A stretch of 64,000 bases of DNA, from the sequence record OR083247.1; one strand, 5' to 3'. Under the pieces are notes generated by a model. The model did no database searches. It saw only the letters and a program-made list of their open reading frames with translations, and was not told the origin of the DNA. A program made the position numbers and the translations under genes. Positions 27,283-55,508 of the stretch are shown here, piece after piece (the first letter of the stretch is position 1; each line of letters begins with the position of its first letter). This stretch comes from Escherichia phage Bf23.

Positions 27283-27299
27283 TAGCTCTCCTGTTTGGT

Positions 27300-27372
27300 A
27301 GTTAGTAGTGGATTTGAACCACTGTAGTCGCTCCGTATGAAGGAGGTGCATAACCACTCTGCCAACTAACTA
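27300..27372 (-). tRNA. tRNA-Met (anticodon CAT)
   Basis: hand-folded: perfect 7-bp acceptor AGTTAGT/ACTAACT, T-arm AGTGG-TTCAAAT-CCACT, loop TTCATAC; CCA not encoded. Confidence 0.6.
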
Positions 27373-27467
27373 TTATGTTTTACTAGACTAAGTAAGTATT
27401 CTTTGTACTCTTTAGACCAATTAGCTTTTTTAAACTTTCCTGGACGCATAGTCTTAATTCCTAGATT

Positions 27468-27544
27468 TGGTACTCCGGGAGGGATTTAAACCCCCGATCT
27501 CTCGGTTATCAGCCGAGTGCTTTAGATCGCTAAGCTACCGAAGT
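27468..27544 (-). tRNA. tRNA-Ile (anticodon GAT)
   Basis: hand-folded: acceptor ACTTCGG/CCGGAGT, anticodon stem CTCGG/CCGAG, loop CTGATAA, CCA encoded. Confidence 0.6.
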
Positions 27545-27545
27545 A

Positions 27546-27773
27546 TTAACATTTAATTGCAGAACGTTTACCATTTCTAGGCGCACCTGGAAGTCGTGCA
27601 CGTTCTGCCATTCTTCGCTTAATCTTTGAGATATTTTCTAGTGTTTGTTCTTCAGGCTTAATACCTGAAACACTACACCACTGATTACCATCCCATGCGG
27701 TAATGATCATAACACCATTACTCATGATCTTTTCTGTAAAAGTAATCCTCATTATAGCAACTCGTCTAAGCAA
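27546..27773 (-). CDS. hypothetical protein
   Basis: 75-aa ORF; start uncertain. Confidence 0.3.
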   Translation of the reverse strand: MLRRVAIMRITFTEKIMSNGVMIITAWDGNQWCSVSGIKPEEQTLENISKIKRRMAERARLPGAPRNGKRSAIKC

Positions 27774-28045
27774 GAGGTATAATGGAATTTAGCTTCTCCA
27801 GTCTTATCTATTTCTACCTCAGTTCGTGGTACTTGACGAACTACACCATGAATCATCTTATAGCGAACGCCTTTAGCTGGTTCATGATCTTTTGGAAATA
27901 CTTGTTTGACCGTTACTACTTTATACTCTTCACGCGGTGTTAATACAACTACTTGATCACCCTCTTTGATTTTCCAGGAAGATGGAAATTCATAGGTATA
28001 CCTTTGGCCACCAGTTTGGAATACTACAGAAAGATAACGTTTCAT
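27752..28045 (-). CDS. hypothetical protein
   Basis: 97-aa ORF with early promoter upstream. Confidence 0.45.
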   Translation of the reverse strand: MKRYLSVVFQTGGQRYTYEFPSSWKIKEGDQVVVLTPREEYKVVTVKQVFPKDHEPAKGVRYKMIHGVVRQVPRTEVEIDKTGEAKFHYTSCLDELL

Positions 28046-28076
28046 TTGGTTTCCCTCTCATTAATTTATATAAATA

Positions 28077-28105
28077 TTATAACAAGAAATAAGAGAGAAT
28101 GCAAA
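28077..28105 (-). promoter_or_regulatory. T5-type early promoter (-35 TTGCAT, -10 TATAAT)
   Basis: conserved cassette. Confidence 0.55.
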
Positions 28106-28119
28106 TGAATTTTTAAGTT

Positions 28120-28194
28120 TGGTGCTCCCACTAGGAATCGAACCCAGCTCAGATGCTTACAAGGCAACTGCATCGCCAACAATGCTTTAGGAGC
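28120..28194 (-). tRNA. tRNA-Thr (anticodon TGT)
   Basis: hand-folded: acceptor GCTCCTA/TGGGAGC, T-loop TTCGATT, loop CTTGTAA, CCA encoded. Confidence 0.55.
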
Positions 28195-28206
28195 GATAAT
28201 CCCATT

Positions 28207-28374
28207 ATTTCAATGGGATTTCTTTTTCAAATACAGGGGATTTATCTGACATTACTGTCATTGCCAACTGCTGAAGAAACTCGAAAGTTAGCTTTAAACG
28301 TTCTTCGCCTAATTCAACCTCAACGTATTTCTTTTGTTTGTCAACCTTTAATTTTAGGTTATCAGCCATCTTCG
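28207..28374 (-). CDS. small hypothetical protein
   Basis: about 55 codons read by hand beginning MADNLKLKV; not in the ORF track. Confidence 0.3.
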
Positions 28375-28583
28375 GATTCTCGTTGCTCAGCTACTGCTAG
28401 CCAGTCTGGTAAAAGAAACTTAGTACGAAACTCTTCATAAGATTCTTCTGGATAAAAGCTAAAACCTCCTTTCTCATCATTCAAGATAACAGAGCCGTCA
28501 GTTTGTTCATATGCTCGATATGTTTCTCCAATAATGATAACTCGCTTATCAGTACTTTTATTACGAAACTCAAAAACGTGCAT
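28362..28583 (-). CDS. hypothetical protein
   Basis: 73-aa ORF. Confidence 0.4.
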   Translation of the reverse strand: MHVFEFRNKSTDKRVIIIGETYRAYEQTDGSVILNDEKGGFSFYPEESYEEFRTKFLLPDWLAVAEQRESEDG

Positions 28584-28599
28584 AACGTTTCCTTAAAGT

Positions 28600-28675
28600 T
28601 GGAGCGGCTAGAGGGAATCGAACCCTACTCAGCGAGGCTTGGAAGGCCTGCGACACAACCCGTGTGCTTAACCGC
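28600..28675 (-). tRNA. tRNA, probably Gly (anticodon TCC)
   Basis: good acceptor GCGGTTA/TAGCCGC and T-loop TTCGATT; loop CTTCCAA; irregular D-arm. Confidence 0.45.
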
Positions 28676-28683
28676 TTATTGTT

Positions 28684-28759
28684 TGGCTGGAGAAGGAGGA
28701 GTCGAACCTACCATTAACGGAGTCAAAGGCCATTGTGTTAACCGTTACACTACTCTCCA
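28684..28759 (-). tRNA. tRNA-Gln (anticodon TTG)
   Basis: acceptor TGGAGAG/TTCTCCA, D-stem GTGT/ACAC, loop CTTTGAC; position 31-39 mismatched. Confidence 0.55.
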
Positions 28760-28765
28760 ATTATT

Positions 28766-28841
28766 TGGCTGGAGTGCCTGGGATCGAACCAGGAACCTTC
28801 GGAGTCAGAGGCCGACGATCTGCCAATTGATCTACACTCCA
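28766..28841 (-). tRNA. tRNA-Gln (anticodon CTG)
   Basis: perfect acceptor TGGAGTG/CACTCCA, T-arm CCTGG-TTCGATC-CCAGG, loop CTCTGAC. Confidence 0.55.
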
Positions 28842-28850
28842 AGAATGCTA

Positions 28851-29087
28851 TTAACTAGACACTGGTTCTGCTGGCTGAGATACGGCAGGCTGTTCTAATG
28901 TATCTGGTGCTGATACAGAGAAAAGAGCTTGTAATGCTGCAATATCACGCTCGTAAGTTTCAATACGAGTAGTAAGAGTATCTACCATCTGTTTATGATA
29001 GGCTAAGTTATTCTGAGATTCATCTCGAAGAGTTTGCAGTTCTGCAAGACGTGTTAACATAATTTCACTAATTAAAGCATTACTCAT
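28851..29087 (-). CDS. hypothetical coiled-coil protein
   Basis: 78-aa ORF. Confidence 0.4.
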   Translation of the reverse strand: MSNALISEIMLTRLAELQTLRDESQNNLAYHKQMVDTLTTRIETYERDIAALQALFSVSAPDTLEQPAVSQPAEPVSS

Positions 29088-48803: not shown

Positions 48804-49565
48804 TTACACCTTCCCCATGTCTTTAAAAATATCATAGAATGCTTTAGACTCAACAGAACGAACGTTATCAATCAATTCGATCATTGAGAAGGGGGCATTT
48901 TCGTATTTCTCATAGACTTCCATAAGTAGTGCTAGACCTGAGTCACCTTTAATGTCTTTCTGAGCTATATCTCCGCAGATAATTAAACGGCAGTCTTGCC
49001 CTACACGAGTTAGGAGACAAATCATTGCCTCAACGGAAATATTCTGAGCTTCATCGACAATTACATAGGAGTTGTTGAAAGTTCTGCCACGAGCATGTTC
49101 GACAGCCAAAAATTTAATTTTCTGACGTTCGACATATCCTTTATATGCATGATCGCCGATGGCCCATTTCATACCATCAGCTATTGGCTCTAACCAAGGC
49201 TCTAGCTTTTCCGCTAGATCACCAGGAAGCATACCAAGAGACTTACCTAGAGGTTCATTAGGACGTACGAGGATCACTTGCTCAATATCTGAGTGAATGT
49301 CTACGAGTTCCTGAGCTGCAAGAACAGACGGGATAAAGGTTTTACCAGTACCTGGCTCACCAATACCCACAGTCACTGTGTTGTTCTTGATCATATTGAT
49401 ATATGATTTTTGCTCGCGGTTTTTACCTACTAGGGATTTAGCAACTGGGTTAGCGTAATCATTAGAAAAATCAGCCTGAATTACGTTATTCTCATATTTG
49501 TTGCCACGCTTTCTTGAACCATTGCGGTTCTCTCTTTTTTGACGTGCTTTTCCCATAAATAACAC
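48804..49565 (-). CDS. phoH: PhoH-like ATPase
   Basis: 253-aa ORF; Walker A 'GEPGTGKTF', Walker B 'VIVDEAQN'. Confidence 0.7.
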   Translation of the reverse strand: MLFMGKARQKRENRNGSRKRGNKYENNVIQADFSNDYANPVAKSLVGKNREQKSYINMIKNNTVTVGIGEPGTGKTFIPSVLAAQELVDIHSDIEQVILVRPNEPLGKSLGMLPGDLAEKLEPWLEPIADGMKWAIGDHAYKGYVERQKIKFLAVEHARGRTFNNSYVIVDEAQNISVEAMICLLTRVGQDCRLIICGDIAQKDIKGDSGLALLMEVYEKYENAPFSMIELIDNVRSVESKAFYDIFKDMGKV

Positions 49566-49629
49566 TCCTATAGTGTACTTCGCTAACAGAGGATCAACAA
49601 AAAGATCTTGTTTATCAACTTACAAATAT

Positions 49630-49658
49630 ATTATACCAATATATACAGTAAAAAGCAA
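49630..49658 (-). promoter_or_regulatory. T5-type early promoter upstream of phoH
   Basis: conserved cassette. Confidence 0.55.
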
Positions 49659-49850
49659 CTACAATTTTAAATAAGCCTATGATATTGCATTTAAATAAAA
49701 AATTTGCTTGCTTTTAACGTGAGATGTGTGATACTAGATAATCATTTTATATCGCGTGCACGAGTGCGTGATTATACAATTTTTAATAGAGATTGGCAAA
49801 TAAAATTTTTTGACTCAGATCATGTTACAGAACTTTATAGTAAAATATTG

Positions 49851-49879
49851 TTGACATCCGCCCTCGAATGAGTTATAAT
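49851..49879 (+). promoter_or_regulatory. consensus sigma-70 promoter TTGACA-17-TATAAT upstream of nrdD
   Basis: exact consensus hexamers with 17-bp spacer. Confidence 0.65.
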
Positions 49880-49908
49880 AGTAGTCTTAGTTAGAGAAGG
49901 AGAGTATA

Positions 49909-51783
49909 ATGAATCGTAATGAAGAACTAAAGTATAAAGAAATGCAGGCGTTAATTAGAAACTGCAAAGAGATTATCGAAGGATCAGCAGATGAAGAGCT
50001 GCTGTTTAATAATGCCAATAAACCCTCAGAACGTTTCCCTACACAAAGGGATATGCTTGCAGGGGAATTGAGTAAATATCTGATTCTAGAAGAAATGCCA
50101 ATTCAGATTCGAAATGCTCATATGATTGGAGATATTCATTTCCATGATGCTGATTACGCTGCTTTAGGTATGACTAACTGTTGTCTAGTAGCTCTGGAAG
50201 ATATGCTAAAAAATGGTATGAAAGTTGGTAATGCTGAAATTAGTACACCAAATTCTATTACTACTGCGGCTGCTATTACAGCTCAGATTATCACACAGGT
50301 TAGCTCCCATCAGTATGGCGGTACTTCTGTAGACCGATTAGATGAAGTATTGGCTCCTTATGTTCGTAAGTCTTATGATAAGAATCATGCGTTTGCAAAA
50401 CGTTGGACTAAGGATGAAGCCAAAGCATCAGTAATGGCTACTGAGATGACTGAAAAAGAAGTCTATGATGCTTGTCAGGGTCTAGAGTATGAAATCAATA
50501 CGATGTTCAATTCTAATGGTCAGAGTCCATTTATTACCTTTGGTTTTGGTCTAGGAACTTCTTGGGAAGCACGTCTAGTACAGAAAGCAATACTGAAAGT
50601 ACGTATGGATGGCCTAGGCATCAATAAACGTACAGCTATCTTTCCGAAACTGGTGTTTGTTCTGCGTGATGGCGTAAATATGAAGCCAGGAGATGTTAAT
50701 TATGACATCAAGAAGTTAGCTATGAAATGTACTGCTGAACGTATGTATCCCGACTATATCAGCTACGATAAGGTTGTGGAAGTTACTGGTGACTATAAAG
50801 TTTCTATGGGCTGCCGTTCATTCCTGGCTGCTACAGAGGATGGTGAAACTGCCGGTCGTAATAACTTAGGTGTTGTTTCTGTAAACTTGCCTAGAATTGC
50901 TATCGAAGCTGAAGGGAATATTGATCTATTCTTTGATTTGCTTGAGCTACGTGTGGATACAGCGTTAAAAGCATTGGAGTGGAGAGTTGATCGCTTAAAA
51001 TACATTCAAGCTAAAGCTGCGCCTATCCTCTATATGTCAGGAGCCTTTGGATTACGCTTAGGGCCTGATGAATATGTATTCGATCATTTCTATAACCGTG
51101 CTTCTGTATCTCTGGGGTATATTGGTTGCCATGAAATGCTACAGTTCATGTTTGGCAAAGATGTAGATACAATGTCTGAGACCTGCATCAAGTTTGTTCA
51201 GCGTGTGCTGCAGTACATGCGGGATAGGGTCGATCAGAAGAAGGAAGAGACTAAGTTAGGTTATAGCCTGTATGCTACACCATCAGAGTCCCTATGTGAT
51301 CGCTTTTGTCGTCTAGACCGTGAATATTTCCCGGAGCATGAAGATATTCTGTCCAAAGGATACTACACTAACTCTCACCACCTTGATGTGGAACGTAAAG
51401 TTGCTCCTAACGTGAAATTTGATTATGAATCTAACTTTACTCCGATTGCTTCTGGTGGATGTATCTCTTATGTAGAACTACCAGATATGAAACGATTCCC
51501 GGATGCACTGGAATGGGTTATTAATTATGCTGCTAGTAAGGTTCATTACTTCGGTATTAATACTCCAGTGGATTCCTGTGGTAAATGTGGATTCTTAGGT
51601 GAAACAGTAGCATCCGAAGATGGATTCAAGTGCCCTATCTGTGGTAATCATGACCCTGAAACTCTTGAAGTAACTCGTCGAGTTTGTGGGTATCTTGGAA
51701 ATCCAGGTGCTCGTCCGTTTAACCCAGGAAAACAACATGAGGTTATGGGCAGGGTGAAACATCAGGATATTCGAGCTAAATAA
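49909..51783 (+). CDS. nrdD: anaerobic ribonucleoside-triphosphate reductase
   Basis: 624-aa ORF; C-terminal zinc ribbon 'CGKCGF...CPICG' and glycyl-radical motif 'RVCGYLG'. Confidence 0.8.
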   Translation: MNRNEELKYKEMQALIRNCKEIIEGSADEELLFNNANKPSERFPTQRDMLAGELSKYLILEEMPIQIRNAHMIGDIHFHDADYAALGMTNCCLVALEDMLKNGMKVGNAEISTPNSITTAAAITAQIITQVSSHQYGGTSVDRLDEVLAPYVRKSYDKNHAFAKRWTKDEAKASVMATEMTEKEVYDACQGLEYEINTMFNSNGQSPFITFGFGLGTSWEARLVQKAILKVRMDGLGINKRTAIFPKLVFVLRDGVNMKPGDVNYDIKKLAMKCTAERMYPDYISYDKVVEVTGDYKVSMGCRSFLAATEDGETAGRNNLGVVSVNLPRIAIEAEGNIDLFFDLLELRVDTALKALEWRVDRLKYIQAKAAPILYMSGAFGLRLGPDEYVFDHFYNRASVSLGYIGCHEMLQFMFGKDVDTMSETCIKFVQRVLQYMRDRVDQKKEETKLGYSLYATPSESLCDRFCRLDREYFPEHEDILSKGYYTNSHHLDVERKVAPNVKFDYESNFTPIASGGCISYVELPDMKRFPDALEWVINYAASKVHYFGINTPVDSCGKCGFLGETVASEDGFKCPICGNHDPETLEVTRRVCGYLGNPGARPFNPGKQHEVMGRVKHQDIRAK

Positions 51784-54060: not shown

Positions 54061-54489
54061 ATGTTCAATAATGTATTCTCTAAAGAAGCTAACCCAATTT
54101 TGGTTAATTTTTGGCGTACTCTTCCAGCCAACCTGTACAATGAGGCTATTAATGCTCTGAAAATATGGTGTGAGAATAATGAAATCTCCTTTGCTTTTAA
54201 GGGTGAGATTGAAGAAGCTCCCTGTATTGGTTTAATTGTGCAGGTAGAGGATGGTTTGGAAGAGATTGTCGGCTGGAAAGAGTTGGATGAAATGGGGTTG
54301 GTTTTTGCATTAAACTATAAGCTATTTATGCCCAATAAACACCGTATTGTTGTTAACTATAAAACCAGTGAATCTCCGGGCTTTCAAGTTAATGAACATT
54401 ACGGTTGGTCTTACTCACCGGAAGAAGTAAATGATGGTATCCAAAAACTTCGTCGTTTTGGTTATCAAATTCCGGGTTTAACCGCCTAA
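54061..54489 (+). CDS. hypothetical protein, paralog A of a tandem pair
   Basis: 142-aa ORF; shares 'PCIG', 'E(L/M)xxMGL(V/I)xALN(Y/F)xLF' and C-terminal 'PGL' with 54499-54891. Confidence 0.5.
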   Translation: MFNNVFSKEANPILVNFWRTLPANLYNEAINALKIWCENNEISFAFKGEIEEAPCIGLIVQVEDGLEEIVGWKELDEMGLVFALNYKLFMPNKHRIVVNYKTSESPGFQVNEHYGWSYSPEEVNDGIQKLRRFGYQIPGLTA

Positions 54490-54498
54490 GGGGGCACA

Positions 54499-54891
54499 AT
54501 GGAACAAGTATATTGGCGTCAGATTGATCCTAGTTTGGTGAAGCGTGCGGAGAAGCTGCTACAACGTTGGTTGGGGGTAAGACAAGCCTCCTTCACTTTT
54601 CCGGAGCAGCAAATAGACGATCCCTGTATTGGTGTTTTCCTATCAGGCTACGCTAGGGAATGGGAATTGGATTGGAATGAGTTGTCTGCTATGGGTTTAA
54701 TTGTTGCACTAAATTTCTCTTTGTTCCATCCACGTGGTTTGGCCCTATGTCGTGTGCCTGATGACGGTTGTTCGCCCCATCTTTTACAGGTGGAAGATGA
54801 TATTTGGGAGTACACTCCAGATATTCTCAAAGAAGCTAAAGAACAGTTAAACCATGTTGGGATCTATGTTCCAGGCTTGAATGATGAATGA
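54499..54891 (+). CDS. hypothetical protein, paralog B of a tandem pair
   Basis: 130-aa ORF with RBS 'aaggggg'; paralogous to 54061-54489. Confidence 0.5.
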   Translation: MEQVYWRQIDPSLVKRAEKLLQRWLGVRQASFTFPEQQIDDPCIGVFLSGYAREWELDWNELSAMGLIVALNFSLFHPRGLALCRVPDDGCSPHLLQVEDDIWEYTPDILKEAKEQLNHVGIYVPGLNDE

Positions 54892-55508
54892 TTTTTATTA
54901 GCTGAACTCTGATTACCGAGTCATTTTGGCTCGGTTTTCTCTGTGCTTAAAGACACTGATAGCACCTTTGGGAAAAATTTACTTGCATGATGCCCAAAAT
55001 CTTGATATAATATTTATATTGAATTGAGAGACATTAGTAAAAATTGATTTTGCTAATTTTTCTTGTTTACAATCCGCGATACGGAACAGTTAGGCTGCCC
55101 CATTAAGGGTTGTTTTAACTATTACTAGTGTTTATATTGCATTAGTTAATCTTCAATTAAGTGATCTGTGTACCCTGAATTCGGAAAGGTAAATCCAAAC
55201 CGTGCATATTTAGCTCGTTATATAGGCAGAGTTTTATATGGGGGTGCGAACGAAAAGAGCAGCGAATGGCGGCACGTACAGTAGTCACCTACCAATAGGA
55301 TAGTGAGGACAAATAGAATCGGCTTAGCGGCCAATGACCTAGGTTCTATTCTGTATATGAGCGAAGAGAGCACAGCACTGAGATATGATAACTTATTCAT
55401 ATTGTTTGATGATAATTGATGTTTACGTAAATAGTAGTAATAGTTGTTCTATTCTTTCTGAATAGTCCTAAAGAAAAGATTTCGATTAACCAACATAGGA
55501 GTATTGTT

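Follow-up and report, generated by a model that had tools for sequence, protein, structure and literature searches.

What occupies the long non-coding gap in front of the D2 helicase gene of T5-like phages? T5 is a classical model phage, yet little is understood of how its replication starts and how its early genes are regulated, a point that has been stressed for replication initiation in particular (PMC3632103). We analysed this gap in a window of 64,000 nucleotides from Escherichia phage Bf23 (record OR083247.1), in which positions 54700-55700 share 98.2% identity with Escherichia phage T5; a search with this region matched 523 phage records. The original prediction had described a leader with a structured, GC-richer segment, and had named a replication origin, a regulatory RNA and a long structured 5' UTR as candidates. 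The gap is neither an empty leader nor a classical replication origin; its plus strand very probably encodes an RNA structure under selection.

Organization of the gap upstream of D2

By the bounds of the flanking reading frames, the upstream ORF ends at 54891 and the 929-aa ORF opens with GTG at 55509, leaving a gap of 617 nt (54892-55508) in which the ORF list holds no frame longer than 60 aa. The predicted non-coding stretch of ~620 bp is therefore exact, and the predicted GTG start at 55509 is also the start in the T5 annotation; that this is the longest gap in the plus-strand block agrees with the ORF list, in a check that was non-exhaustive. The gap consists of the following features, with the gene that they precede:

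54915-54935, plus strand: intrinsic terminator of the upstream operon, hairpin and T-run (terminator scan; rho-independent terminator in T5 records)
54967-55036, plus strand: putative early promoter region T5P32 (annotation of AY587007 and AY543070 carried over to the window; sequence)
55497-55511, plus strand: D2 Shine-Dalgarno AGGAG (55497-55501) and GTG start codon (55509-55511) (sequence, ORF list and T5 annotation)
55509-58298, plus strand: D2, 929 aa, an SF2 bipolar helicase annotated as 'replication origin binding protein' (Pfam, PHROG, PMC3632103)

The gap thus comprises a terminator belonging to the upstream operon, the early promoter T5P32 and a D2 leader of ~490 nt; in this T5-like phage it is predicted to be transcribed as the leader of the early D2 helicase mRNA. 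The T5 record AY587007 labels window positions 54967-55036 'putative early promoter T5P32', and the promoter-like TTGCAT that had been picked out from the letters lies inside this segment. It forms the -35 element (54983-54988) and is followed by a 17-nt spacer and an extended -10 element, TGATATAAT (55003-55011; TATAAT with a TG extension), from which we infer a transcription start near 55018. T5P32 was not flagged by a simple consensus scan because its -35 hexamer matches at just 3/6 positions. Beyond terminator and promoter, the remaining ~470 nt of the gap carry no annotation in the T5 records, and one record calls three ORFs of ~40 aa there. A signal scan of T5-like leaders found no terminator or promoter between the structured domain described below and D2.

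D2 has been characterised biochemically as a bipolar SF2 helicase, and the recombinant protein is an active helicase without any RNA (PMC3632103). Its residues 389-533 correspond to the Pfam domain Herpes_ori_bp, and the protein to PHROG 3712, 'replication origin binding'. Residues 1-380 were modelled by AlphaFold without an alignment at a pLDDT of 38.9, too low for use, and a PDB sequence search on the idea of a primase-like N terminus returned nothing. The ORF upstream of the gap is a homologue of T5.107 with a DUF7415 domain; the two genes 5' of the gap (142 and 130 aa; window 54061-54891) are paralogues, each with two DUF7415 repeats (E 1e-31 to 1e-33). Elsewhere in the window, transcription diverges at 49565-49909, with minus-strand genes to the left and plus-strand genes to the right, a point that coincides with the GC-skew minimum, and 20 tRNA genes, 19 of which reach the Rfam threshold, are clustered on the minus strand at 27296-34574, as is typical of T5-like phages.

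A pseudoknotted domain in the leader

GC content rises from 0.27-0.34 on the two flanks to 0.48 at 55200-55349, as had been predicted for a GC-richer core at about 55200-55350. That this core is a structured segment held in part: it is structured, but it is only the centre of a larger domain (55117-55445), the closing stem of which is formed by the AT-rich flanks. A repeat search showed the core to be bracketed by two adjacent 18-nt inverted repeats ~290 nt apart, which are the arms of covarying RNA helices. Folding of the plus strand gave a long closing stem around a multi-branched core, with energies below those of shuffled sequences (z of -2.4 for the leader and -2.8 for the core) and a weaker signal for the minus strand (z of -1.1); together with covariation in related phages, described below, this upholds the structured segment of the original prediction. 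The elements of the leader are as follows:

55026-55064, plus strand: H1, the 5'-proximal leader hairpin, GAGAGA...UUUCUU (minimum-free-energy fold)
55069-55113, plus strand: H2, a conserved hairpin holding GGAACAGUUAGGCUGCC at 55083-55099 (invariant in type A and type B phages; RNAalifold)
55117-55445, plus strand: core structured RNA domain, 329 nt (inverted repeats I1/I2, folding, helix table of 9 lineages, pair counts)
55160-55170, plus strand: 5' strand of P3, AGUG, an AU bulge and CUGUG, with its partner CACAG CACU at 55370-55378 (helix table, covariation)
55172-55246, plus strand: P4-P5-P6 three-way junction, in which P4 is ACCCU/GGGGU (helix table; double-sided changes in P4 and P6)
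55313-55349, plus strand: P10 hairpin, AUAGAAUC/GGUUCUAU, with a loop of ~21 nt (helix table; stem differs in every lineage)
55449-55465, plus strand: post-P1 hairpin, CUAUUC UUUCU GAAUAG (folding)

The core domain is closed by P1, which pairs 55117-55127 with 55435-55445, and continues through a P1b/P2 stalk into the multi-helix junction. P1 (11-12 bp), P1b (7 bp) and P2 (10+2+4 bp) form a stack, interrupted by small bulges, that is kept in all lineages, and P1-P1b-P2 provides the about two helical turns of double-stranded RNA expected of an RNase III substrate. Within the P10 loop, a mini-hairpin (P10a; GGC-UUAGCG-GCC, 55321-55332) presents the hexaloop UUAGCG (55324-55329). The same loop contributes the 3' half of a pseudoknot, CCUA (55338-55341), to the 5' half, UAGG (55223-55226), in the hairpin loop of P6.

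Several unpaired stretches are invariant: the UUAGCG hexaloop, GAGAAGUG between P7 and P8 (GCGAAUGG in the T5-type version) and CAG before the 3' strand of P3. The H2 element GGAACAGUNNGGCUGCC (55083-55099) is likewise invariant and unpaired, and occurs once in the window. Hairpins of other sequence are predicted at the place of H1 in Sugarland, My1, DU_PP_V and PSTCR5, and the post-P1 position is taken by a hairpin of different sequence in Sugarland, DU_PP_V and PSTCR5.

Compensatory substitutions maintain the fold

Eleven helices (P1, P3a, P3b, P4, P6, P7, P8, P10, P10a, P12 and the P6-loop/P10-loop pseudoknot) were found at the same positions in 9 lineages despite differing sequences. In this helix table native strands pair at 100% and strands swapped across lineages at 54%; the table was hand-built from each sequence and is partly circular, and pair counts in MAFFT alignments are the main evidence. 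The class II alignment (18 sequences; the two classes are defined below) had 119 pairs with pairing at 94.5%, and 53/119 had changed on both sides, compared with 12.4±2.7 in shuffled controls (0/500); the class I alignment (15 sequences) had 111 pairs with pairing at 88.3%, and 41/111 had changed on both sides, compared with 17.7±2.8 (0/500). Slid partners gave 8-22 and 6-12, respectively, a comparison biased in favour of the fold in that the structures come from one member per alignment. MAFFT misaligns some helices in the most divergent lineages, phiR2-01 and Sugarland being visibly off in class I, and the pair counts are therefore conservative.

Individual helices show the same pattern. P3a occurs, by lineage, as CUGUG/CACAG, CUGCG/CGCAG, CCAUA/UAUGG, CUAGA/UCUAG, CUACA/UGUAG and CUGUA/UACAG, and H2 shows a compensatory change from GCAU/AUGC to GUAU/AUAC in a Sugarland-like contig. 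Covariation of the pseudoknot spans 7 lineages (UAGG/CCUA, UGGG/CCCA, CAUGU/ACAUG, UGAGG/CCUCA, UAGAG/CUCUA, UUAAGG/CCUUAA and UAAGG/CCUUA), and 3/5 of its pairs are compensatory in class II. Co-folding of native 5' and 3' halves gave -97 kcal/mol and that of cross-lineage chimeras -85, a mean cost of ~12 kcal/mol, and the comparative structure of the window sequence lies within 4 kcal/mol of its unconstrained optimum (≤4 kcal/mol). G-U pairs make up 35/401 helix pairs, including 3 in the 10-bp P2 helix of the stalk, and T5 has a G-U pair in P1 where the window has A-U; many such pairs, which form on one strand only, are among the compensatory changes, and they fit an RNA of plus polarity, or at least a single strand, and speak against duplex DNA.

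Compensatory changes were found in Tequintavirus, Epseptimavirus, Sugarlandvirus, My1, DU_PP_V, Priunavirus and the Proteus phages, so that maintenance of the fold extends to every enterobacterial Demerecviridae lineage sampled. On comparative grounds, the domain of ~330 nt is predicted to fold autonomously into a pseudoknotted structure maintained by compensatory substitutions, and we infer that it works as RNA, not as duplex DNA. The long structured 5' UTR or regulatory RNA that had been among the original candidates is borne out by a promoter, a leader and a covariation-supported fold of the plus strand.

Two classes of the domain among T5-like phages

Alignment of relatives revealed two very different versions of the core, equal in length, between near-identical flanks. 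Class I comprises T5, the window and Epseptimavirus, and Yersinia phage phiR2-01 and the Klebsiella Sugarland-like phages have divergent forms of it; class II is that of many further Tequintavirus genomes, and a divergent form of it is present in the Pectobacterium phages My1 and DU_PP_V and the metagenomic contig L087. When the window was compared with type-B Tequintavirus genomes in 100-nt bins, identity was 85-100% in the flanks and 75-95% in D2 but fell to 60/39/47% across 55109-55409. Since the drop is limited to the core between similar flanks, sequence comparison indicates that the two structural classes swap as a cassette.

In each Demerecviridae lineage examined, those of Providencia, Proteus and Vibrio phages among them, the D2 homologue follows a non-coding gap of 590-820 nt; a metagenome scan for D2 relatives added just 14 loci. 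The distance from UUAGCGG to the start codon is 172-189 nt in 7 lineages, and in PSTCR5 and Stubb the RNA lies 283-412 nt from the start codon. In the Providencia phages an 11/11-bp P1 closes a 312-nt domain with a UUAGCG hairpin, and a closed domain with this hairpin is also present in the Proteus phages; the leader of the Vibrio phages is just as long but shows no recognisable homology to the T5-type RNA. Each genome has one copy of the RNA.

A covariance model of the class II P4-P6 junction (R1) recovered all class II members; even with filters off it missed class I, PSTCR5, Stubb and the Vibrio leaders, and the rest of the window gave no hit. It is therefore the architecture and motifs in common, and no model hit, that argue for homology between the classes. 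In pattern scans of IMG/VR and GTDB with AGAAGTG-N55-85-CTTAGCGG, the matches listed, My1 aside, were chance or an unrelated conserved coding stretch, and a scan of IMG/VR with the H2 pattern returned known T5-like contigs and 7 unrelated matches only; among the matches listed in these scans, none was a copy of the domain away from D2.

Known RNA families and coding potential

The Rfam scan suggested with the original prediction matched no family to the leader, tmRNA and 6S RNA included. At gathering thresholds Rfam 15 reported 19 tRNAs only in the window, a permissive scan of 54700-55700 (E<=10) gave chance snoRNA-like matches far below threshold, and scans of nine relatives' loci gave no relevant match in the leader. 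The sequence AGAAUCGGCUUAG has what we take to be a resemblance to CR-V of RNase P. In RNase P, CR-I and CR-V pair as the P4 pseudoknot, and CR-V adjoins the 3' strands of P2 and P1. The leader motif CUUAGCGG lies in the loop of the local P10 hairpin, the stem of which covaries, ~110 nt before the 3' end; RNase P RNA was rejected on the absence of an RF00010/RF00011 match and on the incompatibility of this arrangement with the required CR-I/CR-V P4 topology. Group I introns have a P3-P9 core with a G-binding P7 and interrupt a gene, with pairing at the splice sites; this class was also rejected (no RF00028 match; the element is intergenic).

The small ORFs at 55168-55284, 55303-55419 and 55218-55400 (minus strand) were rejected as genes, as they contain stops in the 91%-identical Epseptimavirus, phiR201 and Sugarland versions. 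Their variable sites fall at codon positions 1, 2 and 3 in counts of 1/3/2, 8/5/4 and 4/7/6, with no third-position bias, and none of the three has a PHROG match. Six-frame proteomics of phiR2-01 added g18.1 and g54.1 only, with no product from the gap (PMC8624392).

Possible roles of the domain

The primary role of the domain is possibly cis control or processing of the D2 transcript, a reading to which we give slightly less than an even chance. The domain would then be a discrete factor-binding module at the head of this transcript. The P1-P2 duplex (~35 bp, AU-rich and of the RNase III type) would insulate it from the coding part, and may also excise it from there. The contact surface would consist of the UUAGCG hexaloop, the GAGAAGUG junction, the CAG before the 3' strand of P3 and the H2 loop, and a phage or host partner bound at these invariant motifs would set the stability, processing or translation of D2 mRNA.

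Thermodynamic modelling in 7 lineages found no consistent link between the state of P1 and the predicted accessibility of the Shine-Dalgarno sequence, and sequestration of the latter by the domain was rejected for want of a consistent signal there. The Proteus phages Stubb and PM135 (L071/L072) have two perfect (12/12) sigma-70 promoters, at 505-533 and 1235-1264, the first before a structured non-coding region of ~700 nt and the second 37 nt before the D2 start, with no terminator between them. This second promoter, downstream of the RNA, and the spacing of 283-412 nt argue that control of the D2 ribosome-binding site is not the whole story. The lack of a terminator and of a link between P1 and the Shine-Dalgarno sequence, and the separate D2 promoter in Proteus phages, therefore indicate that the domain behaves as an autonomous module.

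An autonomous module closed by P1 might instead be a stable trans-acting ncRNA or RNP scaffold, released by cutting at P1-P2 and active elsewhere than on the D2 mRNA; its target could be the helicase or replisome, host RNA polymerase or a host defence, among others. Exchange of the classes as a cassette without a matching change in D2, the RNA's own promoter, uncoupled from D2, in Proteus phages, the failure to find Shine-Dalgarno coupling and the precedent of phi29 pRNA for a fold kept under strong sequence divergence all suit this interpretation, but we consider it rather unlikely because no terminator follows the domain and the matches listed include no copy of it away from D2. We also doubt that the leader is a classical riboswitch, in which a small-molecule aptamer, sensing for example a nucleotide-pool signal, would switch D2 translation or transcription elongation via P1. 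Its 5' UTR position, P1-closed domain, kissing-loop pseudoknot and invariant unpaired nucleotides, and the constant spacing to the start codon in seven lineages, would suit a riboswitch, with no feature of the conserved fold that marks it as ligand-binding; however, there is no conserved expression platform (no terminator and no consistent change in Shine-Dalgarno accessibility) and no Rfam riboswitch match, aptamers are typically smaller than this domain, a single ligand would have to fit two very different classes, and D2 has a separate promoter in the Proteus phages.

The replication origin proposed in the original prediction did not stand in its classical form: a search for iterons or repeated initiator boxes (of the iteron/DUE or UL9-box type) returned two-copy short repeats at chance level only, the cumulative GC-skew minimum (a weak criterion in phages) lies 5.5 kb away at ~49-50 kb (~49.7 kb), at the switch in gene orientation and point of divergent transcription, and no record annotates an origin here. 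These observations also tell against a transcript-primed origin, in which the early promoter would drive a structured pre-primer RNA that hybridises to AT-rich DNA where D2 loads, after the model of ColE1 RNA II or of R-loops such as T4 oriF/oriG, and known R-loop origins need no pseudoknotted multi-junction fold. A strong promoter and a long non-coding structured transcript nevertheless stand directly 5' of a putative initiator helicase, AT-rich stretches lie on both sides of the core, the corresponding place in T5 (59.0-59.5 kb of 121.75 kb) falls at the centre of the genome, the T5 origin is not known to have been mapped at sequence level (PMC3632103), and the RNA stays beside D2 even where D2 has its own promoter. 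On balance we hold a transcript-primed origin to be improbable, and give the same slim chance to the domain being a part of the T5-type initiation of replication, and no device for gene expression; it could then be an RNA II-like pre-primer or a scaffold that loads or positions D2 at the genome centre. If true, this would define a new class of large functional phage RNA and, with it, the T5 origin that has long been sought. Covariation alone cannot separate RNA from single-stranded DNA of the same strand, G-T pairs are tolerated in DNA and the neighbouring gene encodes a replication helicase, all of which would allow a plus-strand DNA structure used in replication as an ssi/sso-like priming signal. 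We consider this very improbable because the element lies directly 3' of a strong early promoter, within an mRNA leader, the loop-loop pseudoknot, A-rich loops and many G-U pairs of the stalk (3 in 10-bp P2) are typical of RNA, and known ssi/sso signals are smaller. Finally, a non-functional fold, left by a decayed MITE-like mobile element or by small protein-coding genes, would account for the 18-nt terminal inverted repeats, the cassette-like replacement of the core, the HNH endonuclease genes near the leader in some relatives and the three ~40-aa ORFs annotated in one record. We find it scarcely credible: the small ORFs are broken in relatives, show no third-position bias and have neither a PHROG match nor a phiR2-01 peptide (PMC8624392), the element is present in a single copy per genome, and its internal helices covary, which transposon terminal repeats would not require.

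Comparison with known RNAs

GOLLD, ROOL, OLE and raiA are large structured RNAs of bacteria and phages, of unknown function. The T5-type RNA resembles them in spanning hundreds of nucleotides, in its multi-junction fold with tertiary loop-loop contacts, in having been found by covariation, in being phage-borne and in having no known role. It differs from them in being tied to the leader of a single specific gene, in phages that infect Gram-negative hosts; it matches none of their Rfam models in any lineage and is smaller than GOLLD or ROOL. With riboswitch and other structured mRNA leaders that use kissing loops (for example cobalamin, lysine and T-box) it shares the position in the 5' UTR, closure of the domain by P1, a loop-loop pseudoknot and conserved nucleotides at the junction, but it has no Rfam match or conserved expression platform, exists in two divergent classes and, in Proteus phages, is followed by D2 with a promoter of its own. 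ColE1 RNA II, T4 oriF/oriG and the transcript-primed origins of T7 likewise combine a promoter with a long non-coding structured transcript beside replication functions, whereas the T5-type locus has no skew or iteron signature and a fold far more elaborate than such origins need.

The pRNA of the phi29 family is another phage RNA in which the fold is kept across barely alignable classes and which is encoded beside an ATPase-related function, but its size and architecture differ, and recombinant D2 works without RNA (PMC3632103). The closing stem recalls the RNase III stems of rRNA precursors, the T7 early mRNA and the lambda N leader, as a long interrupted duplex of ~35 bp that flanks a structured RNA in a phage early transcript; in contrast to these processing stems, it is a covarying part of the domain itself.

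We assign the element to none of these groups. Full-text literature searches, outside the scope of which fell the 2005 T5 genome papers, returned no description of a structured RNA or origin in this T5 region, and in this model phage the domain appears to represent a family of large structured RNA that has not been described before. A stretch left empty in the annotation of hundreds of T5-like genomes would encode an RNA that is among the larger structured ones known from a phage of Gram-negative hosts. This corrects annotations that leave the gap blank or call spurious ORFs of ~40 aa, and gives the few large RNAs of bacteria and phages without assigned function a further candidate family. Its two interchangeable classes and many compensatory variants amount to a ready natural experiment, and the domain offers a concrete, mutable target for the control of D2 synthesis and of T5 replication initiation.

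Variation in and around the leader

The loop of P12 (window 55390-55399) ends in NCCA (GCCA, ACCA or UCCA) in 6/7 lineages; the version of T5 and the window, UAACUUAU, lacks this end. An insertion of 97 nt between H1 and H2, with a hairpin of its own (ATTTACGG...CCGTAAAT), is present in DT571/2 (L005; columns 181-278 of alignment A1) and phiR2-01 (L036, ~955-1050) and, judged from two-piece matches, also in Kenya-K44, 26175V and phA11. In Salmonella phage oselot (L004, 556-586), AATTTTGCT is triplicated in the 3' arm of H1 and annotated as a repeat_region; GCUAA is the complement of the invariant UUAGC in the loop of P10a, and My1 and DU_PP_V also have this pentamer between H1 and H2.

The Vibrio Demerecviridae (Brizo-like L077, 808 and 1107; L040) have a non-coding leader of ~710 nt before obp that lacks UUAGCGG and contains a 16-nt direct repeat, TGATCTCTG[T/A]GGGAGT, in copies ~300 nt apart, the first of which begins AGTGATCT, like P3 of the T5 RNA. 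Genes for HNH homing endonucleases adjoin the leader in S132 (L007, 540-992), where the gene is inserted between terminator and promoter, and in SP15 (L008, 1-368), where it replaces the T5.107 homologue; such endonucleases may drive the cassette-like exchange of the RNA classes.
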